Made by a program: the position numbers and the translations under genes. The notes under the pieces were generated by a model. It was not told where the DNA came from and did not search any database. It saw only the letters and a list, made by a program, of their open reading frames with translations. Shown piece after piece: positions 8,101 to 47,114 of a stretch of 64,000 nucleotides of DNA (its first letter is position 1; every line of letters starts with the position of its first letter). Origin of the DNA: Escherichia phage nepoznato. The stretch lies in the sequence record NC_052658.1. One strand, given 5' to 3'.

Positions 8101-8179
8101 TGGAGGCGGGAATCGGATTTGAACCGATGATCTCCAGCATATGAAACTGGCGAGGACGACCAGACTCCTCTATCCCGCT
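8101..8179 (-). tRNA. tRNA-Met or Ile2 (anticodon CAU), CCA encoded
   Basis: Hand-folded cloverleaf: T-arm ATCGG-TTCAAAT-CCGAT, anticodon loop TTCATAT, D-stem GAGG/CCTC; A1-C72 mismatch at top of acceptor stem. Confidence 0.65.
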
Positions 8180-8185
8180 ATTATG

Positions 8186-8257
8186 TATCCCGTGCTGGAT
8201 TCGAACCAGCATCACAATAAGCTGTGGAACTCTTATCCTGTAAGTCTAACGGGAAAC
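8186..8257 (-). tRNA. tRNA-like element, anticodon arm not resolvable (possible pseudo-tRNA)
   Basis: Canonical T-arm GCTGG-TTCGAAT-CCAGC and a 6 bp acceptor pairing, but no 5+7+5 anticodon stem-loop found by hand. Confidence 0.3.
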
Positions 8258-8331
8258 TGGTTGTTTCGACAAGAATCGAACTTGTATCTCACGATTATCA
8301 GTCGTGGGTTCTACCATTGAACTACGAAACA
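8258..8331 (-). tRNA. tRNA-Ile (anticodon GAU), CCA encoded
   Basis: Acceptor TGTTTCG/CGAAACA, D-stem GTTC/GAAC, anticodon stem CACGA/TCGTG with loop CTGATAA, T-arm ACAAG-TTCGATT-CTTGT. Confidence 0.75.
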
Positions 8332-8394
8332 TTTAAAAGAATATCTCACGTCTGATACAGACTAACCTTTTGTCTGACGCATGAAATATTTAAT

Positions 8395-8471
8395 TGGTCG
8401 GAATTGCAGGATTCGAACCTGCGACCCTACGCTCCCAAAGCGTATGCTCTACCAAACTGAGCTAAATTCCG
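8395..8471 (-). tRNA. tRNA-Pro (anticodon UGG), CCA encoded
   Basis: Acceptor CGGAATT/AATTCCG, D-arm GCTC-AGTTTGGTA-GAGC, anticodon stem TACGC/GCGTA with loop TTTGGGA, T-arm GCAGG-TTCGAAT-CCTGC. The 5' end overlaps the stop of CDS 8462-8980. Confidence 0.8.
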
Positions 8472-8980
8472 TTATTAATGTGCTTCCATGTGGTGTAAGT
8501 AACAATATCCTGTATTGTCCATCTTGAAACTTCATACTTTTTTGCCAATGCTCGTTGACTAATTTTAGTAGTCTCATACTCCATACGGATTTGAATAACA
8601 TCTTTTTCTGATAACTTGGCTTTATTATTTTCTTCCCCTTTAGGATTAACAAGTAATCCTGTGCTAACAGCGTGTGTCATATTCTCATGCTGTGTCGCCC
8701 ACTCCACGTTATCCTTGTGGTTGTTAAGCTTGTTACCATCTTTGTGATTAACAGATTTCTTGTTTTCAGGATTAGGATGAAAAGCTTTACAAACCAAACG
8801 GTGAATCTTAAAACAAATACTTTTTCCTTTTCTACCGCCAATTTTTGTTGCGTGGGTATAGTAACCTGTTTTAGATATGGTTTGGGATAGTATCTTATTA
8901 GTTCTCTTACTTCTTAATCTTCCGAGGTCACTTATTTGGAAGTAATTCTCATAACCAGCTACATCACGCCATTCTTCCAT
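8462..8980 (-). CDS. HNH homing endonuclease embedded in tRNA cluster
   Basis: 172 aa; motif ...VNHKDGNKLNNHKDNVEWATQHENMTHA, closely similar to the HNH protein at 4560-5240. Confidence 0.7.
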   Translation of the reverse strand: MEEWRDVAGYENYFQISDLGRLRSKRTNKILSQTISKTGYYTHATKIGGRKGKSICFKIHRLVCKAFHPNPENKKSVNHKDGNKLNNHKDNVEWATQHENMTHAVSTGLLVNPKGEENNKAKLSEKDVIQIRMEYETTKISQRALAKKYEVSRWTIQDIVTYTTWKHINNGI

Positions 8981-9106
8981 TTATACCTACTTATACCTGA
9001 ATAAAACAATAAATCATTTAATGAAGGGCAACCAGAAGAAGTGTGAGAGAAGGAGAAAACCATGAGTAAAAGAGAAAGTTTTCTGGCAACCCTTTATTAA
9101 ATAATT

Positions 9107-9183
9107 TGGAGCGTTATATCGGATTCGAACCGATGCCACCGACTTGGAAGGACGGGATGCTGAACCGCTAACACTAATAACGC
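9107..9183 (-). tRNA. tRNA-Gly (anticodon UCC), CCA encoded
   Basis: Acceptor GCGTTAT/ATAACGC, anticodon loop CTTCCAA, T-arm ATCGG-TTCGAAT-CCGAT; one U-U mismatch in the anticodon stem. Confidence 0.7.
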
Positions 9184-9196
9184 TTTGTATATATTT

Positions 9197-9226
9197 ACTA
9201 TACTACATTTTACTATCGAATGTCAA
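9197..9226 (-). promoter_or_regulatory. sigma70-like promoter (TTGACA, 18 bp, TATAGT) for the tRNA-Gly unit
   Basis: Minus-strand reading TTAAATAACTATTGACATTCGATAGTAAAATGTAGTATAGT, immediately upstream of tRNA-Gly. Confidence 0.55.
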
Positions 9227-9501
9227 TAGTTATTTAATAGGTGGGACAGTGACGAGTATCCCATTGGGTGACTAGCCCTACGTTCGGTAAGCTAACTTAA
9301 AATAATACAAAACCAAAGTCAAATATTATTCTTCGTTGCTGTCGATGGGAGAGCCGCTTCTTCTTTTGCCCCATCCAACCCTACTCCGGTCAAGTTTCAG
9401 GTAACTCTTTTTGTGATCAACACAATACTAAGAACACTGTCTTTCGAACAGACCTTGTGCACAGGATACGACGATCAATCACAGTGCCCTTAATGTTGTG
9501 T

Positions 9502-9576
9502 TGGTGCTCCCACTCTGAATCGAACAGAGATCCACGGATTACAAAACCGTTGTAATAGCCATTATACTATAGGAGC
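9502..9576 (-). tRNA. tRNA-Thr (anticodon UGU), CCA encoded
   Basis: Acceptor GCTCCTA/TGGGAGC, anticodon stem ACGGT/TCCGT with loop TTTGTAA, T-arm CTCTG-TTCGATT-CAGAG. Confidence 0.65.
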
Positions 9577-9583
9577 AAAGCTG

Positions 9584-9657
9584 GGACTCGGCAGGATTCG
9601 ATACCTGCAATTCCAGAAGCCTATTGGCGACTGGGGGTTTACCTTAACTCTACAAGT
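9584..9657 (-). tRNA. tRNA-like element, atypical (8-nt T-loop, no clean anticodon arm)
   Basis: Acceptor GGACTTG/CGAGTCC pairs and a T-stem GCAGG/CCTGC exists, but the loop is TATCGAAT and the anticodon arm is non-canonical. Confidence 0.3.
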
Positions 9658-9666
9658 CCATAATTC

Positions 9667-9752
9667 TGGCGATGAGTATAGGATTCGAACCTATATTGTT
9701 CTTTCGAACACGGATTAACAGTCCGCCGCTTAAACCATTCAGCCAACTCATC
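9667..9752 (-). tRNA. tRNA-Asn-like (anticodon GUU) with a long variable arm, CCA encoded
   Basis: 86 nt; anticodon arm GCGGA-CTGTTAA-TCCGT; acceptor GATGAGT/ACTCATC; 15-nt variable hairpin GTTC-GAAA-GAAC; T-arm ATAGG-TTCGAAT-CCTAT. Confidence 0.55.
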
Positions 9753-9758
9753 TTAATT

Positions 9759-9846
9759 TGGTGGTGAGTGATGGAGTCGAACCACCCGAATCGCAATGAT
9801 AACAGATTTACAGTCTGCCCCGCTACCCCTACGGAATTAACTCACC
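9759..9846 (-). tRNA. tRNA-Tyr (anticodon GUA), type II, CCA encoded
   Basis: 88 nt; acceptor GGTGAGT/ACTCACC; anticodon arm GCAGA-CTGTAAA-TCTGT; long variable arm; T-arm GGTGG-TTCGACT-CCATC. Confidence 0.75.
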
Positions 9847-9976
9847 TAAATACTAATATTTAAATTCTTTTTAAAATAGCCAGTGTTCACACCACTAACT
9901 ATGAGTTATCGGTAAAGTGGTTACCGCCACTTGCCGAAGATTTACTCTGCTAAAGTAAGCTACATTAAAAAGAACT

Positions 9977-10062
9977 TGGCGGTAGATGTAGGACTCGAAC
10001 CTACACGCCGTTTCCGACTACAGTTTAGCAAACTGTCGTGGCTACCATTTCACCAATCTACC
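9977..10062 (-). tRNA. tRNA-Ser (anticodon GCU), type II, CCA encoded
   Basis: 86 nt; acceptor GGTAGAT/ATCTACC; D-stem GTG/CAC; anticodon arm ACAGT-TTGCTAA-ACTGT; long variable arm; T-loop TTCGAGT. Confidence 0.75.
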
Positions 10063-10067
10063 TAATC

Positions 10068-10158
10068 TGGTGGAAGGAGGGAGAGTCGAACTCCCAAGGC
10101 TCTTTCAAGCTCGGCGGTTTTCAAGACCGTTTTCGTCGCCACATCGATTTGCCCTTCC
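10068..10158 (-). tRNA. tRNA-Ser (anticodon UGA), type II, CCA encoded
   Basis: 91 nt; anticodon region ACGGTCTTGAAAACCG; acceptor GGAAGGG/TCCTTCC; T-arm GGGAG-TTCGACT-CTCCC. Confidence 0.7.
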
Positions 10159-10167
10159 ATACTTATA

Positions 10168-10196
10168 ATCTAACATAAAATAATGTTTGTTGTCAA
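10168..10196 (-). promoter_or_regulatory. sigma70-like promoter (TTGACA, 17 bp, TTAGAT) for the tRNA-Ser unit
   Basis: Minus-strand reading AAAAAACTATTGACAACAAACATTATTTTATGTTAGAT, upstream of tRNA-Ser(UGA). Confidence 0.5.
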
Positions 10197-10392
10197 TAGT
10201 TTTTTAAAACATTTTACCATGAATGGTGACTCCACCAACCCCCGTTCTCCACGAACGGTGCTCTTCGAGCATTTATGTCTTCTAATATAACCGTGGCCTT
10301 TGTTTATAATGTCTGACATACTTGCCTCATTCTCTGCCACCATGATCAGTAGTGGGTTCAAATCACTTGAGCTAATTCATGTTAAAATGTTC

Positions 10393-10467
10393 TGGTGTCT
10401 TTACAAGGAATCGAACCTTGACTAAGAGTTTAGAAGACTCCTGTGCTATCCATTACACCATAAAGAC
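10393..10467 (-). tRNA. tRNA-Arg (anticodon UCU), CCA encoded
   Basis: Acceptor GTCTTTA/TAAAGAC, D-arm GTGT-AATGGATA-GCAC, anticodon arm GGAGT-CTTCTAA-ACTCT, T-arm AAGG-TTCGATT-CCTT. Confidence 0.8.
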
Positions 10468-10469
10468 TT

Positions 10470-10544
10470 TGGTGGCCCTGGCTGGTTTCGATCCAGCTAC
10501 CTATCGGTTATGAGCCGACAGCTCTCCCATTGAGCTACAGGGCC
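10470..10544 (-). tRNA. tRNA-Met or Ile2 (anticodon CAU), CCA encoded
   Basis: Acceptor GGCCCTG/CAGGGCC, D-arm GCTC-AATGGGA-GAGC, anticodon arm GTCGG-CTCATAA-CCGAT, T-stem GCTGG/CCAGC with loop ATCGAAA. Confidence 0.7.
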
Positions 10545-14305: not shown

Positions 14306-14662
14306 ATGGGTACTATTATTTGGCTTGATGATTTACGTGATCCAAAAGATTATGGTTATCCAGATGCAATCTGGTTTAAAACATCACAGGAACTTCTTGC
14401 CTCTCGTTACATGAATGAGGTGCAGAAGGGTTATCGTTTTGTAGACGAGTGGCATTTTGACAACGATTTGGGTGAAGACTCTGATCGAGATGGGTATGAT
14501 GTTTTCTTACATTTGGAAGAACTCCTGATGTTTGGTAAACCTTGTTTTGGTTCACCTACTATTTTCGTGCATACTTCTAATCCCTCCGCTGGGGATAAAT
14601 TCATGCTTGCAAAAGAATCCATGCTGCGTTATGGTATTCAAATGAAGCGTGTTCACTATTAA
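14306..14662 (+). CDS. hypothetical protein
   Basis: 118 aa ORF preceded by RBS GGAGG. Confidence 0.4.
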   Translation: MGTIIWLDDLRDPKDYGYPDAIWFKTSQELLASRYMNEVQKGYRFVDEWHFDNDLGEDSDRDGYDVFLHLEELLMFGKPCFGSPTIFVHTSNPSAGDKFMLAKESMLRYGIQMKRVHY

Positions 14663-14673
14663 GGAGAAACTTA

Positions 14674-15030
14674 ATGAGCAGTATTGATCAGAACATTTGT
14701 TACCAACCTCTCACTTGGATCGGTGAGGGGCATTATGCGCAACGTGTTATCGTCTGTGCTGCGAATAAGTATATTTTGAATAATGGTGAAGAATTAATTA
14801 TTCCTTGCGTTCGACATGCAAATCCTGTACTATATGCACAGTTAAACGTGTTGAAAGAAGCAGGTGTAATCAACAAAACTTTGTGCACACCAGATAATCA
14901 AGGCTTTATCGATCAGTATTACAATTGGTGGAGTCGTGCGGATGCTTACATCATCGCGGAAAATGCTGACCAGATCGACCATGAGCGTAATGGTCACGAC
15001 CATGAATTATTTAGCGAGGGATTATACTAA
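14674..15030 (+). CDS. hypothetical protein
   Basis: 118 aa ORF. Confidence 0.4.
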   Translation: MSSIDQNICYQPLTWIGEGHYAQRVIVCAANKYILNNGEELIIPCVRHANPVLYAQLNVLKEAGVINKTLCTPDNQGFIDQYYNWWSRADAYIIAENADQIDHERNGHDHELFSEGLY

Positions 15031-15581
15031 TGTTTATTACAAGCGATTTGCATTTTATGCATAAACGTATTCGAGAGTTTGCTCCTGAATATCGTCCGTG
15101 GGAAGATATGGACCACATGACAGAAGCCTTGATCGAAGCATGGAACAAATGTGCTACTACTCCTGGTGTTAAGATGTGGCATTTGGGCGACTTCTGTTTC
15201 GGAACTGAAGAAGATACCCGTAAAATTGCTTCCCGTCTCCAAGGAGATATCACCTACTGTGTTGGGAACCATGACTACAGCAAACACCGAGAAGTGCTTG
15301 CAGAGTATGGCGAAGTGGTGTATTATGACGAAGTGAAATACCAGAAGCTGTTCTTCGTCTTAAGTCATTACCCTATTGCCTCCTGGAATAAACAAGGTCG
15401 TGGATCAATCATGCTACACGGGCATTCCCACGGATCTTTCCCTGATGAAGCTTATGGTAAAATGTTAGATGTGGGTTGGGATGCACACGGAAAAATCTTG
15501 CATTTTGATGAGATAATTTCTATGATGAGTAAACGAGATATCGTGACTGTAGACCATCACAAAATAATCAAAGGAGAGTAA
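15030..15581 (+). CDS. calcineurin-like metallophosphoesterase (candidate RNA end-healing phosphatase)
   Basis: 183 aa; metallophosphatase motifs DLHF, GDFCFG, GNHD, HGHSH; directly upstream of RNA ligase and kinase. Confidence 0.6.
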   Translation: MFITSDLHFMHKRIREFAPEYRPWEDMDHMTEALIEAWNKCATTPGVKMWHLGDFCFGTEEDTRKIASRLQGDITYCVGNHDYSKHREVLAEYGEVVYYDEVKYQKLFFVLSHYPIASWNKQGRGSIMLHGHSHGSFPDEAYGKMLDVGWDAHGKILHFDEIISMMSKRDIVTVDHHKIIKGE

Positions 15582-15582
15582 T

Positions 15583-16515
15583 GTGACTAAATTTAATTGC
15601 GACGATTTGGTTGAAAAAGGTTTAGTTCATAAGAAAACATATAAAGAAGGAGAGTATTCTGGTCTATCTGTTCTTAAGTATAAGAACAAAGTTTTCTGGG
15701 ATAACTTATGGAGTATTGATTCTCGTCTTCTAGAATGTCGCGGGATCGTTGTTGATGCTGATGACAATGTTGTTATTTGGCCTTTCACTAAGATTTTTAA
15801 TCGTTTTGAGAATGGCACAGATCTACCAGCGGATGAACTTGTAGATGTGGTTCGTAAAGTAAATGGTTTTATGGCCTCTGTAGGTGTATATAAAGGTCAA
15901 CTTATTGTATCGACAACAGGAAGCCTTGAATCAGATTTTGCAAGTATTGCAAAGAATCGTATTGTTTCAGAGTGTGATGACATAGAACATTTCATCAAAT
16001 GGACAGAGAGTGCAAAAGCAACTTTCCTTTTTGAAATCTGTGATCCTTCTGATCCGCATATTGTCGAAGAAGAACCAGGTGCATACTTAATTGGTGCCAG
16101 AATTCAAAATCCTGATGGGACAAGTTTTATGTTACCTGAAGGTGCTCTTGATGGAATTGCTTCTGTCACCAAATTTAAGCGTCCTGAAGTTCATTCGATG
16201 GTTAAGTTTTCAGATGTTGTTGAAATGTCTAAACATTGTAAACACGAAGGGTTTGTAGTTCGTGAAACAAACTATCCGTTCAACTTGCTTTTAAAAATTA
16301 AATCACCACACTATCTTACTAAGAAGTTTCTTATGCGTGGTGGAGATAAAAAGTGGGATCTGATTTGGGATAATCCAAAAAATGCCAAACAAATGGTTGA
16401 CGAAGAATATTACGCTTTGTTAGAATGGATTCGAAATAATTTTACGAAGACTCAATGGGCTGCTTTAAATCAGCAAGAGCGACGTGAAAAAATCGAAAAC
16501 TTTTTTGGAGGATAA
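15583..16515 (+). CDS. RNA ligase, Rnl1 family
   Basis: 310 aa; ECRGIVVD matches T4 Rnl1 ECRGIMFE; nucleotidyltransferase motif I VRKVNGFMASV matches T4 Rnl1 LTKEDGSLVS (KxNG variant). Confidence 0.6.
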   Translation: MTKFNCDDLVEKGLVHKKTYKEGEYSGLSVLKYKNKVFWDNLWSIDSRLLECRGIVVDADDNVVIWPFTKIFNRFENGTDLPADELVDVVRKVNGFMASVGVYKGQLIVSTTGSLESDFASIAKNRIVSECDDIEHFIKWTESAKATFLFEICDPSDPHIVEEEPGAYLIGARIQNPDGTSFMLPEGALDGIASVTKFKRPEVHSMVKFSDVVEMSKHCKHEGFVVRETNYPFNLLLKIKSPHYLTKKFLMRGGDKKWDLIWDNPKNAKQMVDEEYYALLEWIRNNFTKTQWAALNQQERREKIENFFGG

Positions 16516-16920
16516 ATGAAACAACTTATCATTTTACGTGGCGTTTCAGGTGCTGGTAAATCTACAGTAGCAGAAATTATTTCTGAAGGTTATTGGCCTA
16601 TCTGTGAGGCAGATCAATATCATTACACAGAGAGTGGTGTTTACGATTGGAAGCCAGAAAATGTAGGTAAAGCACACGCATGGTGTCAGGGTATTGTTCG
16701 TGATGCTATGGCATCTAATCTTAACAAGATTATTGTTTCTAATACTTCAACCACAGAGAAAGAACTTAAACCTTATCTAGCTCTTGCTGAAGAGTTTGGT
16801 TATCAAGTTATCTCTTTAATTGTTGAAAATAGGCACGGTAATGATTCAATTCACGAGGTTCCACAATATATCCGTGATCAGCAAGAGAAACGTCTTCGTG
16901 GTTCACTTAAACTTCAATAA
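16516..16920 (+). CDS. polynucleotide 5'-kinase (T4 Pnk kinase-domain-like)
   Basis: 134 aa; P-loop LRGVSGAGKSTVA matches T4 Pnk TIGCPGSGKSTWA; VSNTSTT matches ISDTNLN; no HAD phosphatase domain attached. Confidence 0.6.
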   Translation: MKQLIILRGVSGAGKSTVAEIISEGYWPICEADQYHYTESGVYDWKPENVGKAHAWCQGIVRDAMASNLNKIIVSNTSTTEKELKPYLALAEEFGYQVISLIVENRHGNDSIHEVPQYIRDQQEKRLRGSLKLQ

Positions 16921-16929
16921 GGAGAAATA

Positions 16930-17256
16930 ATGCAGATTTATACAGATGATCGTAAATATGAGACAATTTTAGATGAAGATACTGGACGAATTACCGTTCT
17001 CCGTCACGGTGAAGAGTGGCGTGATGAAACGGGAGACAATTATATCTTGTCTCTGATTCATCTTATTGAACAAATGCGTGATGATTACGCTGAACTGCAT
17101 TATGAAAATGAGGCTAATAAAGTAAAATTTGAAAATGAATTAGAAGAGAAAGAATCTGAAATGGTATATCTAAAAGAAGAGATCTCCCGTTTGGAGGAAG
17201 AGATTGATGCTCTTCAAGAAGAGATTTACGAACTCAACAACGAACTGAACGCTTAA
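16930..17256 (+). CDS. hypothetical coiled-coil protein
   Basis: 108 aa; C-terminal heptad-like Glu/Leu-rich segment. Confidence 0.4.
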   Translation: MQIYTDDRKYETILDEDTGRITVLRHGEEWRDETGDNYILSLIHLIEQMRDDYAELHYENEANKVKFENELEEKESEMVYLKEEISRLEEEIDALQEEIYELNNELNA

Positions 17257-17265
17257 GGAGGGATT

Positions 17266-17457
17266 ATGAAAAAAGATATCGTTGTTGTTGGTTGGCTGAC
17301 TTGCCCTTGTGGTAGTAATGACATAACTGTAAACACAGAGGGTGATAAAAATTATTTATTCTACGGGGATAAAATCACTTGCAATACCTGCGGACGTGTT
17401 GGTATTATAGAAACCGATGATTGTTGTGCTTTTGAATCTTGGGATGAAGAAGAATGA
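17266..17457 (+). CDS. hypothetical zinc-ribbon protein
   Basis: 63 aa with CPCGS...CNTCGR. Confidence 0.35.
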   Translation: MKKDIVVVGWLTCPCGSNDITVNTEGDKNYLFYGDKITCNTCGRVGIIETDDCCAFESWDEEE

Positions 17458-17675
17458 GTACTGCATTTTATGTTCGTAGCGGAGACGAGGATTTTCTAGC
17501 TACTTTTGATGACGGTGATCTTGAAGATATGTATGAAGATATGCTTGACTATGCCAAAGGGCAAGGTTTCACAAGCATTGATTATATGTTGGCAACATCT
17601 ACAACGTTACTCGACGCAGATTTGGATGAAGTGTGTAACAGATTGAAAATTTCAGTTTTTAAATGGGAGGACTAA
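17454..17675 (+). CDS. hypothetical acidic protein
   Basis: 73 aa ORF. Confidence 0.35.
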   Translation: MSTAFYVRSGDEDFLATFDDGDLEDMYEDMLDYAKGQGFTSIDYMLATSTTLLDADLDEVCNRLKISVFKWED

Positions 17676-18790
17676 TGCAACAAACAAATCAAACGCTGTA
17701 TGGTAAAGATTCAAAAGGAAAACTTAAACAGTGGACAGTGTATACAGATGGTGCAGTTGTTACTGTAGCTCATGGAAGAGTAGGTGGAAAGATCACAGAA
17801 AAATCTTATACAGCAGAAGCAAAAAACATTGGTCGTTCCAATGAAACAACACCGGAAGAACAAGCTGAACTTGAAGCTTTTGCCAAATGGACAAAACAGT
17901 TAAAGAATGGCTATTATAAAACAAAAGAAGAAGCTGAAAACCATGTTCCTTCCACACCAATGAAATGCCAGGATTATAAAGATTATCCTGAAAGGGTTGT
18001 GTTCCCTGGTTATGCACAATACAAACTGAACGGGTTACGTTCTATGATTAACATGAAAGGGGAGTGTTTATCAAAAGCTGGGGAAGTGTATAACCTGCCA
18101 CCTCATTGGAAAGGTATTCCAAACTTTATTAGTGAAGTTGTTGGTCATCCTCTTGATGGTGAAGTGTTTGCTGGGTTAGGTGTCCTTAGTCTGCAACAAA
18201 TTAACAGTGCTTGGAAGAAGCATAATGCAAATACACCTTTGCTGAATTATTACGTATACGATATTCCAGTTCCAGGTCTACCGTTTGAAAAACGTGTTGA
18301 TGCTCTTGCTGCTCTTAAGGCAGTAGTTGAAGATTATGGTCTTGACGAGCTTATTTGTGTAGTTCATACAGAGTATATTGAAAACCAAGAGCAGTTTGAC
18401 GCTTTCTATGAAAAAGCTTTACTTGAGAAAGCTGAAGGTGTAGTATATCGTAATGCTCACGGAGTTTACGAATTTGATAAACGTTCTTATGACGTTATTA
18501 AACGTAAGCCTCGCCACACCCTTGAAGTTAAAGTAACAAATTCAAAAAGCGATAAAAATGGCGATGGAGTGTTGACAGGTGAGATGGAAAATGGTAAAGT
18601 AGTCGAATTCTTAATGCGTAAAGATGCTCATGAGACTATCAATTATCGTAAAGCAGAGAATGCTTCTACCTTGATTAATCAGTTCGTTGAAATAGAGTAT
18701 GAAGAATTTTCAGATGAAGGTATTCCAACAAAACCTGTTGGTGTTCGTATTCGAGAAATGATTCCAGGCACTTGGGAACCAGCAGAGTAA
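17663..18790 (+). CDS. ATP-dependent polynucleotide ligase (DNA ligase-like, KxNGxR motif I)
   Basis: 375 aa; motif I YKLNGLR (KxDGxR with Asn in place of Asp); EGVVYRNAHG resembles motif IV; downstream KRKP resembles motif V. Confidence 0.5.
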   Translation: MGGLMQQTNQTLYGKDSKGKLKQWTVYTDGAVVTVAHGRVGGKITEKSYTAEAKNIGRSNETTPEEQAELEAFAKWTKQLKNGYYKTKEEAENHVPSTPMKCQDYKDYPERVVFPGYAQYKLNGLRSMINMKGECLSKAGEVYNLPPHWKGIPNFISEVVGHPLDGEVFAGLGVLSLQQINSAWKKHNANTPLLNYYVYDIPVPGLPFEKRVDALAALKAVVEDYGLDELICVVHTEYIENQEQFDAFYEKALLEKAEGVVYRNAHGVYEFDKRSYDVIKRKPRHTLEVKVTNSKSDKNGDGVLTGEMENGKVVEFLMRKDAHETINYRKAENASTLINQFVEIEYEEFSDEGIPTKPVGVRIREMIPGTWEPAE

Positions 18791-18799
18791 GGAGGAAAA

Positions 18800-18994
18800 A
18801 TGTTCTTAGCCATTTTAATCGTTTTCAGTGTACTTTCTTTTTATTGTATGAATGCTTCGGAAAACTTTCCTAAGAATTCAAAGAAAAGAACCGTATGTGT
18901 TGTGATTGATTCATGTATGTCTGGAGTTGGGTATGCGGTAGTTTCTTGTTTCTTAGCTTATCATTGTTCAAAATACCTGGAGGCATTTTTATGA
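18800..18994 (+). CDS. hypothetical membrane protein
   Basis: 64 aa hydrophobic ORF. Confidence 0.3.
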   Translation: MFLAILIVFSVLSFYCMNASENFPKNSKKRTVCVVIDSCMSGVGYAVVSCFLAYHCSKYLEAFL

Positions 18995-19173
18995 TAATTT
19001 TAGCAACAATTCTTATGATGCTGATAGCAATTGCTATTGTAATACTGGCATCTTTTCCAGCGGATAAATGGTATTTCAATATTCCACGTATGCTTGTTTT
19101 CGGTTTTGCAGGAATTTACATGGGTGAGTCTGTAGTAAATATTAGCAACTTTCTAGAAAGCTATTTTAAATAA
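18991..19173 (+). CDS. hypothetical membrane protein
   Basis: Track ORF 18913-19173 trimmed to the ATG at 18991 after RBS GGAGG; two predicted transmembrane segments. Confidence 0.3.
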   Translation: MIILATILMMLIAIAIVILASFPADKWYFNIPRMLVFGFAGIYMGESVVNISNFLESYFK

Positions 19174-19182
19174 GGAGTTATA

Positions 19183-19908
19183 ATGATCGAGAATTTTTTT
19201 AAAGATATTAAATTCGATACTGAATTTTTCAAAAATGCAGCGAAGCACGTGATTGATTGGAATGCTAAAGCACGAGGTGGTGAACAACCTGAATTCACTC
19301 AAGAGCTATTTATGTCCCAAATCGGATTCGTTCGTGAAGAGCTTAAAGAGTATGAAACAGCCGCGAAAGTAAACGATCATGTAGAACTCTTGGATGCAGC
19401 AGCGGATATTTTTGTAGTATCCAGTTATCTGACCTACATGTTCTTTGGTGAAGAACATACGATGAATTTCTTGGACTATGCTGTAGGCGATGTTTTTACT
19501 CCAACTGTGTATACTGATTTTGATGCTTTGGAACAAACATTTACAGAGCCAGTTCAAATGGCACTAATGGCTGCTGGTATTATGCGTATGTCTCGTGACA
19601 CTCTAATCCGTTCAAAATATCCAGAAAAGAAAATTATTAAAGAAGTATTGAAAAGTAACGATTCCAAGTATCCAACTAAACAACAGTTGCTGAAAACTTG
19701 GAAAACTTCAGATATCGATTCAGCCATTGCACAAGAATGCACTGCAATTGAAGAACGAAACGCCAATCGTCCAGAAGGAGCATACACGGGTGTTCATGCT
19801 GTTTATAATGAAAAACAGAAAGTGTATGTGTTCTTTGATGATAAAGGTAAGATCATGAAGTGGTCAGGTTTCATTAAACCTAACATTGCAGCCATTATTA
19901 ACAAGTAA
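19183..19908 (+). CDS. MazG-like nucleotide pyrophosphohydrolase (putative)
   Basis: 241 aa; helical EExxE...ELLDAAADI pattern typical of all-alpha NTP pyrophosphatases. Confidence 0.4.
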   Translation: MIENFFKDIKFDTEFFKNAAKHVIDWNAKARGGEQPEFTQELFMSQIGFVREELKEYETAAKVNDHVELLDAAADIFVVSSYLTYMFFGEEHTMNFLDYAVGDVFTPTVYTDFDALEQTFTEPVQMALMAAGIMRMSRDTLIRSKYPEKKIIKEVLKSNDSKYPTKQQLLKTWKTSDIDSAIAQECTAIEERNANRPEGAYTGVHAVYNEKQKVYVFFDDKGKIMKWSGFIKPNIAAIINK

Positions 19909-20876: not shown

Positions 20877-20905
20877 GCCTACCTACTTAATGAGGTAGGC
20901 TTTTT
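20877..20905 (+). terminator. intrinsic terminator
   Basis: Hairpin GCCTACCT-acttaatg-AGGTAGGC followed by TTTTT. Confidence 0.6.
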
Positions 20906-37909: not shown

Positions 37910-38239
37910 ATGGAAATTACTACAGAACAAGCCCTTATCGACGAGGGTCGTAAAATCTTAGAAAAGCATTTAGGGGAGATTCATAAAACTCCTGGCTATT
38001 TGGGTTGGAGAATTGTTGAAGCTGTAGATTTCCTTCCTCGTAACAGTAAAAGCGTCGAAATGCGATCTCTTTTCTTATTAGTAAAGGTGGATGGGGATAC
38101 ACCTTTTAAAGATGCCGCAGAGCATATTGAAAAAGTTGAAGAGAAAGCTTATGCAGAATTTGCCGATCTTGTTTTAGAACAAGAGATTGAAGGAAAGGTG
38201 AATATTTTTATTTTCTTAGATTTTGAGGAGGATAAGTGA
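37910..38239 (+). CDS. hypothetical protein
   Basis: 109 aa ORF; RBS GGAGGAAGG. Confidence 0.4.
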   Translation: MEITTEQALIDEGRKILEKHLGEIHKTPGYLGWRIVEAVDFLPRNSKSVEMRSLFLLVKVDGDTPFKDAAEHIEKVEEKAYAEFADLVLEQEIEGKVNIFIFLDFEEDK

Positions 38240-38979
38240 TCATACATAGAGAAATTACTGTTAAAAGCGATCAAGATCTTTTTATAATTGGAGATCTACA
38301 CGGTTGTTATAATTTGTATGAAAAAGGAAAGGCAAAGTTAGGTATCCGAGATACAGATGTAGTTGTATCTTTAGGAGATCTTACTGACCGTGGAAAGCAA
38401 AACTTTCGTTGTGTTTTAGAATTTACTCGTAAACACAATCGCTACGCTATTCGTGGAAATCATGAAGACATGATGATTAAAGGTATGCTGGAAGGAGATC
38501 GTAGCTACTTCGAGTGTTGGTATCAAAATGGAGGATATACAGTCCTTGAAGAATGTGGTGAAGAAGGAGCTACAGCCTTAGCAATGATGACAGAAGATTT
38601 ACCTGTTGTTCTCATTGTTAACTACAGAGGCATGAAACTTGCGTTTATTCATGGTGGGTATCCATCTTCTTTGGAATATCTCCCTGTAACAGATATTCCA
38701 GAATACACTTTGAAGATGACAAAAACACAGGAAAACCGTTTTGCTGAAGCACTTATGTGGGACAGAGATATGGTGGACTGTGCTAAAGAGGGAATGAAAC
38801 TTCCTGTTGTGATGGGTGTGGACTATGTGTTTCATGGACACTCTTATGTAAAAACACCTATTATCAATGCGAATCGTGTTTATATGGATACTGGATCTGT
38901 GTTCAATAATAACTTAACATTTGCTTATTTCGATATGGACGGTGGTCTTCAATTTTATTCAACTCTTGAGGAGGATTAA
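38236..38979 (+). CDS. Ser/Thr protein phosphatase (lambda-phosphatase-like metallophosphoesterase)
   Basis: 247 aa; GDLHGCY, GDLTDRG, RGNHE and later HGH motifs. Confidence 0.65.
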   Translation: MIIHREITVKSDQDLFIIGDLHGCYNLYEKGKAKLGIRDTDVVVSLGDLTDRGKQNFRCVLEFTRKHNRYAIRGNHEDMMIKGMLEGDRSYFECWYQNGGYTVLEECGEEGATALAMMTEDLPVVLIVNYRGMKLAFIHGGYPSSLEYLPVTDIPEYTLKMTKTQENRFAEALMWDRDMVDCAKEGMKLPVVMGVDYVFHGHSYVKTPIINANRVYMDTGSVFNNNLTFAYFDMDGGLQFYSTLEED

Positions 38980-45092: not shown

Positions 45093-45572
45093 ATGTTTCA
45101 AGTAAATATCAATGTGCATAATAGTTACTCTGATTGTGAAACGTGTGGCTATAATTCATCTAATGTTGTTCGTATTAGTGGCGATTTAGGAGAAGCTTCT
45201 TTTGGAGAAGAAGCAAGTTGCTTTAGTGGTATGGATGCAGAATGGAATGATATTGCACATTGGTTGGTGAGCAAACTAAAAGAAAAAGAGAAACCCTTTC
45301 CTACTCTGCTTGATCGTTCCTTTGTAGAAGATGCAGGTAAAGCATATGCGGATTATGCTTATGCAGACGGGAAATATTTGGAAGATGATAAGGCTAACCA
45401 TTTGCTTTATGTTTATTATGAAGCTGAATCTGCCTACGATAATTATTATAGCATGTCTAACATCCTCCGTCTATTTGCAGAGTTTGATATTTATTTTGAA
45501 GTAGAATTTTCAGAAGATGATACTTACGAATATGATTCTTATGATCCATTTGAGGAGGACGAGGGTGAATGA
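45093..45572 (+). CDS. hypothetical highly acidic protein
   Basis: 159 aa rich in Asp/Glu/Tyr; C-terminus ...EDDTYEYDSYDPFEEDEGE. Confidence 0.4.
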   Translation: MFQVNINVHNSYSDCETCGYNSSNVVRISGDLGEASFGEEASCFSGMDAEWNDIAHWLVSKLKEKEKPFPTLLDRSFVEDAGKAYADYAYADGKYLEDDKANHLLYVYYEAESAYDNYYSMSNILRLFAEFDIYFEVEFSEDDTYEYDSYDPFEEDEGE

Positions 45573-46309
45573 TAGAACGAAAACCCTTACCAGATAGAGA
45601 TTACTTGTTATCAAGGTTTAGTGTGGAGAATGGTCGTCTTGTTTGGAAACCTAAACCTTCTACAACAAAAGAGAACAAAAGGTGGAATAGCAGATACGCA
45701 GGGAAGATTGCAGGGACTATTGATAAAGTTGGTTACTCTCATGTCAAAATAGATGGTATTGTATACTTGGAGCACAGAGTTTGTTTTAAAATGTACCATA
45801 ATTACTGTCCAGATGTTATAGATCATGATGATGGCAATAAGCTTAATAATGCGGAAAGTAATTTATTGGATAGTAACTATTTATTAAATAATAACAATAG
45901 ACATGTGGATGGGTTAGAAGGTATTTATGAAAAGGATGGTGTTTTTCTTTGGGTTATAAACTACAACCAAGAAACTTTCTCTGTTTCAGGTTTCAAAACT
46001 AAAGAGGAAGCTACTGTAGCTAGAGCTTTAGCAAAACAAGAAATTTTGAAAGGATCTTATATCAAAAAAGAAAAGAAGCGTATAGATAACACTTCAGGAT
46101 TAAGTTGTGTGTTTGTGGCAACAAGAGAGAGAACATTCTTTTTCAAGTTTGTGTTTGACAAGACCACGTATTGCAAATATGGTTTCAACGATCCAGAGAG
46201 ATGTGCTATAGCTCTGGAGAAGCTAAGGTTGAAGGTGATGAAAGAAAAATATAAACCTGCAAATAAAAGCATTTGCGAAAAACATAAGGAGGAGATTTAT
46301 GCCGCGTAG
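45569..46309 (+). CDS. HNH endonuclease
   Basis: 246 aa; ...DVIDHDDGNKLNNAESNLL HNH core. Confidence 0.6.
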   Translation: MIERKPLPDRDYLLSRFSVENGRLVWKPKPSTTKENKRWNSRYAGKIAGTIDKVGYSHVKIDGIVYLEHRVCFKMYHNYCPDVIDHDDGNKLNNAESNLLDSNYLLNNNNRHVDGLEGIYEKDGVFLWVINYNQETFSVSGFKTKEEATVARALAKQEILKGSYIKKEKKRIDNTSGLSCVFVATRERTFFFKFVFDKTTYCKYGFNDPERCAIALEKLRLKVMKEKYKPANKSICEKHKEEIYAA

Positions 46310-47114
46310 AGTCATATTCATAACTGGCGCAGGACTATCTGTGGATAGCGGTATCCCAGCTTTTAGAACAGATACTTCTTCAGGGGAGGCGTTATGGTCT
46401 TCTTATAATCTTTCTGAAGTCTGTGACATTTTCAACTTCCGTGACGGTTATCAGCAAGAACAAGGTATTCTTGATGCTATGGGCGGTTTAGATGCGGAAG
46501 GATATAACCTCTACCGTAAAACTCACGACTTTTACAATAAACGTCGCGCGGAATTAGAGAAAGTTGACCCGAATCCGGCACATCTTCAGATTGGGGAATG
46601 GTTCAAAAAACATGGTGCAGAAAAGATTATTAACATCACTACTAACGTTGATGACCTCCTTGAACGAGCAGGAGTAGATAGGGAAGAAGTGCTACATGTG
46701 CATGGTTTTCTTCCTGAAATTACTTTTCAAAGAAAAGCTGGACAACCTACAATTGTAAAAGATGTTGGTTATCAAGCCATAGATGTAGATGACTACCATT
46801 ATGTAAAACCTAATGTAATCTTCTTTGGGGAAGCTGCTCCACTTTACACAGATATGTATCATATTTTTGATACACTGACGGCTCAAGATATGGTTATCGT
46901 TGTAGGCTGCTCTAACCAAGTAATCAACTTCAACTGGGAACTCTTCCCTGCCCTGAATATTGGGGTTAAGATGGTTGTAGTTAACCCAGGTTTGAATTTT
47001 GTAGAACAAACTCTCTACGAAGAACGTGGAGTGCTTGTCTACCGAGAGAAAGCAGGAACAGTCTTCAGTGATGAAGGCTTTATCAAAATGGTCGAAGACC
47101 ACTTAAACAAATAA
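46299..47114 (+). CDS. Sir2-family protein (NAD-dependent deacylase / ADP-ribosyltransferase-like)
   Basis: 271 aa; ITGAGLSVDSGIPAFR, TTNVDDLLERAG, LHVHG, NVIFFGEAAP; no CxxC zinc module. Confidence 0.65.
   Translation: MPRRVIFITGAGLSVDSGIPAFRTDTSSGEALWSSYNLSEVCDIFNFRDGYQQEQGILDAMGGLDAEGYNLYRKTHDFYNKRRAELEKVDPNPAHLQIGEWFKKHGAEKIINITTNVDDLLERAGVDREEVLHVHGFLPEITFQRKAGQPTIVKDVGYQAIDVDDYHYVKPNVIFFGEAAPLYTDMYHIFDTLTAQDMVIVVGCSNQVINFNWELFPALNIGVKMVVVNPGLNFVEQTLYEERGVLVYREKAGTVFSDEGFIKMVEDHLNK

Follow-up and report, generated by a model that had tools for sequence, protein, structure and literature searches.

Enzymes that heal and seal broken RNA ends have been described from phage T4, where the Pnk (pseT) and Rnl1 (rnlA) proteins act together, from bacteria, which possess the Pnkp/Hen1 system, and from fungi and plants, which use Trl1 (LIG-KIN-CPD) and Tpt1. 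In addition, a sirtuin-centered RNA-repair neighborhood of the V5/Mydo type has been predicted in phage genomes, with a tRNA ligase like that of T4, a protein of the cREC type, a nucleotide kinase, a MazG pyrophosphatase, a calcineurin-like phosphoesterase, and a sirtuin as its components; the sirtuin was proposed, likewise as a prediction, to strip 2'-phosphates in the manner of KptA (Iyer, Burroughs, Anantharaman, and Aravind, 2022; PMC9503650, section 3.7.3). In this study, we analyzed a 64,000-nucleotide stretch of DNA from Escherichia phage nepoznato (NC_052658.1), referred to below as the window, in which an initial annotation had recognized a three-gene RNA end-healing and sealing cassette at positions 15030-16920. 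A cassette of this type is already known, since the genes of relatives are so annotated in GenBank and the neighborhood was predicted in PMC9503650; the finding is ordinary but well supported computationally, and the results hold no surprise for the specialist.

Over the 3.5 kb surrounding the cassette, the window is 96-98% identical to Escherichia phages of the genus Phapecoctavirus, among them Mt1B1_P17, ukendt, ESCO25, and Schickermooser. The source phage is a Phapecoctavirus (Stephanstirmvirinae, myoviruses of about 150 kb), that is, a phAPEC8-like phage of E. coli. The cassette consists of genes for a metallophosphoesterase (15030-15581, + strand, 183 aa, ATG start), an Rnl1-clade RNA ligase (15583-16515, + strand, 310 aa, GTG start), and a stand-alone P-loop kinase (16516-16920, + strand, 134 aa, ATG start). 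The three genes are co-directional and translationally coupled: the ligase GTG is located 1 nt past the phosphoesterase stop and 3 nt past a Shine-Dalgarno sequence (AAGGAGAG), and the kinase ATG, preceded by GGAGG, follows the ligase stop with a gap of 0 nt. Based on the exact open reading frames (ORFs), the tight junctions, and the profile matches, the presence of a three-gene cassette at these positions is confirmed and goes far past what chance would give, and the enzyme assignments and the healing-and-sealing logic hold on profile, structure-prediction, and gene-neighborhood evidence. In GenBank records of the relatives the three genes carry the labels "metallophosphatase/phosphoesterase," "putative RNA ligase" or "RNA ligase 1 and tail attachment protein," and "ATPase" or "putative polynucleotide kinase," respectively.

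Conservation of the linkage was surveyed in 80 IMG/VR loci that were recruited by the ligase alone (35-87% identity) and whose ORFs were searched iteratively with each window protein. Two annotated GenBank relatives bring the total to 82 loci, and grouping of the 80 IMG/VR ligases at 60% identity gave 35 lineages. Within 6 kb of the ligase gene, the phosphoesterase was detected in 62 and the kinase in 73 of the 82 loci; counted by lineage, the phosphoesterase was present in 30, the kinase in 29, and both in 26 of the 35. The gene order was variable and included phosphoesterase-ligase-kinase, kinase-ligase-phosphoesterase, interrupted versions of these, and a single fused kinase-ligase polypeptide. 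The fusion, with the kinase at the N-terminus of the ligase, occurred in 12 loci; in one of them (L051) both AAA_33 and RNA_lig_T4_1 were found by Pfam, and a replacement phosphatase, looked for beside the fused gene, was not recognizable. No other evidence at hand speaks as strongly for a single pathway of the three proteins as this linkage, which outlives rearrangement, together with the joining of two genes into one polypeptide. The cREC and sirtuin genes adjoin or lie near the ligase in 12/82 and 11/82 loci, respectively, and a MazG-like gene lies downstream in 14/82. Because cREC and the sirtuin join the ligase in one phage group only (rV5/phAPEC8-like), the phosphoesterase-ligase-kinase triad is regarded as the conserved core and cREC and the sirtuin as lineage-specific additions. 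To the published picture the survey thus adds a core that extends over approximately 35 ligase lineages, with kinase and ligase sometimes fused, and accessories that belong to one group.

The product of the first gene is assigned to the aq_1665/COG4186 clade of the calcineurin-like superfamily and has a complete binuclear metal site. It matched phrog_547 at 9e-56; the Pfam Metallophos_2 score of the single sequence was slightly under the cut-off (24.3 vs 27 bits). With a family profile the sole strong relative of solved structure was Aquifex aq_1665 (PDB 1xm7, 5e-24), GpdQ and YfcE were marginal matches, and neither lambda phosphatase nor the Pnkp phosphatase was matched in the PDB at E <= 1. 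The calcineurin-like motifs DxH, GD, GNH[DE], H, and GHxH are present as D6-x-H8, G53-D54, G79-N80-H81-D82, H113, and G131-H132-x-H134, and the metal ligands D6, H8, D54, N80, H81, H113, H132, and H134 are invariant in 27 homologues (28-64% identity), as are the family-specific residues H11, R22, W119, D147, and D151. Motif II reads GDF, not GDxxDRG. We predict that this protein is an end-healing enzyme with 2',3'-cyclic-phosphodiesterase and 3'(2')-phosphatase activity. A second, unrelated calcineurin-like metallophosphatase (PF00149, 2.7e-13) is encoded at 38236-38979, in the same + strand block.

The second gene encodes an ATP-dependent enzyme of the Rnl1 clade that is not an RnlA orthologue. 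The sequence matched PF09511 (RNA_lig_T4_1) at 1.3e-15, with 58.4 bits against a cut-off of 28.3, and a PHROG family labeled "RNA ligase and tail fiber attachment catalyst" at 2e-70, but it scored 24.6 bits against a cut-off of 242 for the RnlA equivalog TIGR02308 (NCBIfam). As a single sequence the ligase had no match in the PDB and the kinase hardly any, and family profiles were used instead. The ligase profile (23 homologues, 49-86% identity) aligned with the nucleotidyltransferase domain of T4 Rnl1 (2c5u/9do4) at 1e-10. The residues invariant among these homologues, K92-x-N-G95 (motif I), E151 (III), E222-G223 (IV), and K238-x-K240 (V), align with T4 K99, E159, E227, and K240/K242, and the N-terminal R53 and K70, also invariant, have counterparts in T4 R54 and K75. 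An AlphaFold2 model (pLDDT 90.7) was compared by Foldseek with solved structures, among which fungal Trl1-LIG ranked at the top (6n0t, 7.5e-13; also 9qw7 and 8rbj) together with T4 Rnl1 (9do4, 2.3e-12, TM 0.67). This Trl1-LIG/T4 Rnl1 group extends from 7.5e-13 to 1.9e-11, its best neighbors (to 2.8e-12) having TM values of 0.60-0.67, and is followed by archaeal Rnl3 (7e-10 to 2e-6), Rnl2 (about 1e-5), Rnl5 (about 2e-5), and DNA ligases (at least 7e-5). The C-terminal 70 aa of the model form a shorter helical bundle. The ligase is the putative sealing enzyme and would act on RNA, in particular on tRNA anticodon loops. The subfamily is essentially phage-restricted: 680 phage records were matched and a single record among 185,579 bacterial and archaeal species genomes, a contig of a metagenome-assembled genome that is probably phage.

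The third product is assigned to the polynucleotide-kinase clade as a stand-alone P-loop kinase and is predicted to phosphorylate 5'-OH ends. It matched PF13671 (AAA_33) at 3.5e-10, a PHROG family labeled "ATPase" at 4e-56, and phrog_505, "polynucleotide kinase," at 1e-7. The Walker A residues G9, G12, G14, K15, and T17 are invariant among 28 homologues, and so is D33, which corresponds to T4 D35. In T4 Pnk, K15 and S16 belong to the Walker A P-loop, D35 is the catalytic general base, Arg38 binds the acceptor nucleotide, and Arg126 belongs to the lid; the roles of the two arginines are reported from mutational and structural work of the Shuman laboratory. The best PDB matches of the family profile were T4 Pnk (1ly1, 2.7e-10), Capnocytophaga Pnkp1 (4xrp, 8e-10), and the kinase domain of Clostridium thermocellum Pnkp (4gp7, 3e-9), with further matches to the seryl-tRNA(Sec) kinase PSTK and to mammalian PNKP. 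The adenylate kinase 9d2f, a multi-P-loop protein, scores equally high only through summed short P-loop matches, and single-domain small-molecule kinases enter the list at about 1e-5 (nicotinamide riboside kinase, 1.2e-4). The sequence pattern of the kinase (RGxPGSGKS...D.Y...G.Y...AH.WC...SNT) may resemble that of an N4BP2-type polynucleotide-kinase domain. As had been stated in the initial annotation, the HAD domain of T4 Pnk is absent: the 134 aa of the kinase align with residues 1-145 only of the 301 in T4 Pnk, and no part corresponds to the HAD (DxDxT) 3'-phosphatase. The profile searches by which the assignments were to be checked thus gave a match for each of the three proteins (PF09511, AAA_33, and phrog_547).

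We consider it likely that the cassette is a split RNA end-healing and sealing pathway for breaks ending in a 2',3'-cyclic phosphate and a 5'-OH, the substrate being RNA rather than DNA. In such a pathway the metallophosphoesterase would take off the cyclic phosphate or monophosphate and leave a 3'-OH, perhaps, in this lineage, after the cREC protein encoded upstream has opened the cyclic phosphate. The small kinase would phosphorylate the 5'-OH, and the Rnl1-type ligase, adenylylated on K92, would then close the nick between 3'-OH and 5'-PO4, the anticodon loops of tRNAs being the most plausible place. The outcome would be the restoration of translation during infection.

The cassette belongs to a longer translationally coupled string, and in this respect the three-gene extent given initially was too narrow: the three genes are there, but a cREC gene and a PF26092 gene precede them in the same string, and a MazG-like gene and a sirtuin gene elsewhere complete the published list. 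The cREC protein is encoded at 14306-14662 (+ strand; PF20274 cREC_REC, 6.9e-14, over the cut-off). The cREC domain, which is receiver-like, was defined by the Aravind group and has been predicted to open cyclic phosphates (PMC7824862). Here it appears to be an accessory of one lineage, predicted to open 2',3'-cyclic phosphates. Its counterparts in ESCO25 and ukendt bear the label "putative RNA ligase and tail attachment protein," which looks like an annotation error passed between records. The MazG/PRA-PH-like nucleotide pyrophosphohydrolase gene (19183-19908, + strand; PF01503, 3e-06; phrog_671, 8e-27) is located 2.3 kb and the sirtuin (SIR2) gene (46299-47114, + strand; PF02146, 3.2e-21) 29 kb downstream of the cassette. 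In the rV5-like loci (L005-L016) the published arrangement is found, with SIR2 right after the kinase and with proteins homologous to those of the window. A tblastn search with the sirtuin of one of these loci (L006, 7926-8702; SIR2 at 2.3e-23) recovered the window sirtuin at 53% identity (1.3e-95). In the window the position after the kinase is occupied by a coiled-coil ORF (16930-17256) and two small ORFs, not by the sirtuin. Thus, the full published list of components is present in this phage, with the sirtuin displaced by 29 kb; the window sirtuin may be an NAD+-dependent remover of 2'-phosphates. The ORF directly before the sirtuin gene (45569-46309) has a match to the HNH_3 endonuclease family slightly under the Pfam cut-off (22.2 vs 24.8 bits), and mobile elements may have had a part in moving the sirtuin gene. 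The labels of the coiled-coil ORF in GenBank relatives, "DNA polymerase I" or "hol-like chemotaxis," also look like errors passed between records.

The PF26092-family gene (14674-15030, + strand) encodes a small protein without an assigned function, and its stop codon overlaps the phosphoesterase ATG by 1 nt (TAATG). The family, with 1479 phage records that include T-even phages, has the invariant motifs VCAAN, RH, QGFID, and a C-terminal ELFSExLY. The T6 homologue lies between motA and the gene for the McrBC inhibitor arn, a region that presumably corresponds to the arn.N ORFs of T4. The "anti-restriction nuclease" label of the PF26092 protein was probably inherited from this T6-type position near arn; we found no support for an anti-restriction function of the protein. 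As a pathway member it was set aside: among 80 loci recruited by the PF26092 protein, ligase or kinase genes were near only in the three closest relatives. Its membership is doubtful, and the coupling to the phosphoesterase leaves room for it. Literature searches returned no paper for phAPEC8 in combination with RNA ligase and none for PF26092, and the HIDEN-SEQ preprint mentions only the rnlA of T4/Bas37 and not this cassette.

The cassette is part of a co-directional block (about 12.0-20.9 kb) of replication and nucleotide-metabolism genes, which also includes RdgC and exonucleases and lies away from the structural genes. The block is probably terminated by a hairpin at 20877-20900 (8-bp stem with 5 GC pairs, then a T-run), the strongest terminator-like structure on the + strand; the equivalent site is annotated as a terminator in phage Schickermooser. 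A sigma-70 promoter scan of the 10.5-21.5 kb region gave 34 sites vs 31.8 +/- 5.8 in shuffled sequence, and with no excess no promoter is claimed. An ATP-dependent DNA ligase (PF01068; phrog_114, 2e-74) is encoded at 17663-18790. The RNA-ligase homologue is therefore not the only sealing enzyme of the phage, and the joining of DNA can be left to the other gene.

Several observations weigh against an RNA-repair function. The position of T4 Rnl1 K119 is T112 in the ligase, and the C-terminal tRNA-specificity domain of T4 Rnl1 has no counterpart by sequence, the profile alignment ending at motif V (T4 residue 250). In the kinase the position of T4 Pnk Arg38 is H36 and is variable in the family (H/F/W/M/A/L), and about 40% of the family have xxYG where the lid arginine R106 (ENRHG) stands, near T4 R122/R126; with the Arg38 equivalent absent and the lid arginine partly kept, the acceptor of the kinase could differ. 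The nearest solved relative of the phosphoesterase, aq_1665, is a structural-genomics protein without an assigned function. The phosphoesterase family occurs in 1357 phage records, about double the 680 of the ligase, and for the homologue in Staphylococcus phage K (L165) the annotation shows no RNA ligase within 5 kb, which indicates that the phosphoesterase is not an obligate RNA-repair enzyme. In a close relative, a natural variant (L083, 6357-7593; IMGVR_UViG_3300014004_000001, 153 kb), cREC, PF26092, and the phosphoesterase are retained and the ligase and kinase have been lost, an unrelated 112-aa ORF with a HEAIH motif taking their place; the ligase-kinase module is thus dispensable and separable. 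In Pseudomonas phage PaoP5 (L166, Pakpunavirus) the ligase-kinase pair lies beside genes for PRPP synthetase and nicotinamide phosphoribosyltransferase, which calls for caution. No biochemical or genetic data for any of the three subfamilies were found in the literature searched. Phosphoesterase homologues are also found near PRPP synthetase and nicotinamide phosphoribosyltransferase genes in both PaoP5 and Staphylococcus phage K, which suggests that the module is recurrently associated with phage NAD+ salvage genes.

The same proteins could act in an NAD+-dependent, eukaryote-like route, following the Iyer/Aravind model (PMC9503650, section 3.7.3). In this model cREC would open the cyclic phosphate to a 2'-phosphate and 3'-OH, the kinase and a Trl1-like ligase would join the ends with the 2'-phosphate still on them, and the sirtuin would remove the 2'-phosphate at the junction by ADP-ribosyl transfer, as Tpt1/KptA do; the metallophosphoesterase and MazG would clean side products or handle 3'-phosphate ends. 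The location of cREC two genes upstream of the triad, the MazG-like gene downstream, the similarity of the window sirtuin to the one that follows the kinase in rV5-like loci, and the presence among the top structural matches of the ligase of fungal Trl1-LIG, which requires a 2'-phosphate, are all consistent with such a route. However, a single phage group accounts for all loci in which cREC and the sirtuin go with the ligase, whereas the triad is found in 26/35 lineages; the sirtuin is 29 kb away in this phage, the functions of cREC and of phage sirtuins are themselves predictions according to PMC9503650, and a phosphatase that yields 2'-OH/3'-OH ends would render the sirtuin step needless. 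We regard this route as unlikely.

An end-processing module for DNA is improbable: adjacency and fusion involve the RNA ligase and not the DNA ligase. In such a module the kinase and phosphoesterase would turn 5'-OH/3'-phosphate DNA nicks or breaks, made by host nucleases or in replication and recombination, into substrates of the nearby DNA ligase, and the substrates of the Rnl1-like protein would be DNA or hybrids of RNA and DNA. The DNA ligase gene does begin 0.7 kb downstream of the kinase gene and is found no more than 6 kb from the RNA ligase in 42/82 loci, the block contains RdgC and exonucleases, and T4 Pnk and mammalian PNKP, relatives of the kinase, have DNA as a substrate. The phosphoesterase also weakly matches PdeM, a DNA-repair endonuclease of the ligase-associated type (TIGR04123, E 0.004), but this is far under the cut-off and not significant, and the ligase groups with the RNA-specific Rnl1 and Trl1, with DNA ligases at about 1e-4 or worse. 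It is hardly credible that the three are unrelated auxiliary genes sharing an early region, with the ligase as a T4 gp63-like tail-fiber attachment protein, the kinase acting on a small molecule such as nicotinamide riboside, and the phosphoesterase degrading a second messenger. The PHROG and GenBank labels ("RNA ligase and tail fiber protein attachment catalyst"), the PaoP5 gene pair beside nicotinamide and PRPP genes, and the weak match of the kinase profile to nicotinamide riboside kinase would fit such an assortment. Against it stand the linkage of the triad in most lineages despite rearrangement and the kinase-ligase fusions, and polynucleotide kinases outscore nicotinamide riboside kinase by six orders of magnitude. 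The tail-fiber label is inherited from T4 gp63, the RnlA equivalog score is about a tenth of its cut-off, and the locus is not among structural genes.

If the cassette repairs RNA, its most plausible targets would be tRNAs. A tRNA cluster is present in the window at 8101-10544 (- strand), with nine tRNAs called by ARAGORN and ten over the Rfam cut-off. The initial annotation had placed the cassette next to this cluster; the cluster is real, but it is nearby rather than adjacent, being 4.5 kb away on the opposite strand, with a divergent intergenic region and approximately 10 small ORFs between. The tRNAs of the phage include none for Lys, Tyr, Glu, or His, and this would fit a repair that serves tRNAs not replaced by the phage. 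The cassette may have a role in counter-defense; the earlier proposal of PrrC or RloC as the target nuclease is a conjecture, and the sequence points to no particular nuclease. Within the cluster (in 9762-9846 / 10072-10158, - strand) are an extra tRNA detected by Rfam (39 bits, cut-off 29) and not called by ARAGORN, and a tRNA-Sec-like match under the Rfam cut-off (35.7 vs 47 bits). At 8472-9106 (- strand), an insert of about 530 bp takes the place of the tRNA-Gln that relatives such as ESCO25 and Schickermooser carry, flanked by tRNA-Pro and tRNA-Gly. It encodes an ORF starting MEEWRDVAGYENYFQISDLGRL, which looks like the N-terminus of a NUMOD4/HNH-type homing endonuclease.

Phapecoctaviruses and their rV5-like relatives are broad-host-range coliphages that are often proposed for therapy, and defenses that cleave tRNA or other RNA are increasingly recognized (PrrC, RloC, PARIS, retron-PtuAB, Cas13, and bacterial Schlafens). 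If the module works as predicted, it would help to explain the tolerance of these phages to RNA-cleaving defenses, and it would represent a second, mechanistically distinct phage route to 3'-end healing beside the HAD phosphatase of T4.

Compared with the T4 system, of which it would be a functional analogue, the predicted pathway comprises the same three chemical steps (3' dephosphorylation, 5'-OH phosphorylation, and ATP-dependent sealing). Both systems are phage-encoded, in genomes that also have a separate DNA ligase, and both include a ligase with the Rnl1-type fold and motifs and a Pnk-type P-loop kinase with the catalytic Asp. The differences lie in the 3' healing step, which is here assigned to a separate binuclear metallophosphoesterase and in T4 to a HAD domain fused to the kinase; in the kinase, which is without an Arg38 equivalent; and in the ligase, which is shorter (310 vs 374 aa), shows no sequence match to the T4 tRNA-specificity domain in its C-terminal region, and scores far under the RnlA equivalog cut-off. 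The cassette genes are contiguous, whereas the Pnk and Rnl1 genes are dispersed in the T4 genome.

The resemblance to bacterial Pnkp that had been noted initially is valid for the combination of superfamilies: Clostridium thermocellum Pnkp and Capnocytophaga Pnkp1-Rnl-Hen1 likewise unite a P-loop polynucleotide kinase with a phosphoesterase of the calcineurin superfamily and an ATP-dependent RNA ligase, and two of the best matches of the kinase family (4xrp and 4gp7) are kinase domains of Pnkp proteins. It does not extend to the families. The phosphoesterase is of another clade (aq_1665/COG4186, with GDF) than the lambda-phosphatase-type enzyme of Pnkp (GDxxDRG), the ligase is Rnl1/Trl1-like and not of the Pnkp type, and three separate proteins correspond to one polypeptide in Pnkp. 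A Hen1 methyltransferase was not matched in the eight neighboring proteins scanned (14.3-19.9 kb), a set that leaves out small ORFs at 12.0-13.8 kb, 17266-17675, and 18.8-19.2 kb. The likeness to Pnkp is an analogy at the superfamily level, not a family relationship.

Similarity to the fungal and plant Trl1/Tpt1 system is seen in the ligase, for which Trl1 LIG is the top structural match, in the kinase-ligase fusions among relatives of the cassette, and in the presence of candidates for opening a cyclic phosphate (cREC) and for using NAD+ (the sirtuin). However, the order of the fusion is KIN-LIG in these relatives and LIG-KIN in Trl1, and neither a 2H CPD domain nor Tpt1/KptA is present here. 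With the V5-type neighborhood the locus shares the co-location of ligase, cREC, kinase, MazG-like gene, and calcineurin-like phosphoesterase (14306-19908). It differs in that the sirtuin lies outside, at a distance of 29 kb, and that the gene immediately before the ligase is the phosphoesterase. In addition, cREC is upstream instead of between ligase and kinase and is separated from the phosphoesterase by an inserted PF26092 gene. The core that emerged from the survey is phosphoesterase-ligase-kinase and not the sirtuin.

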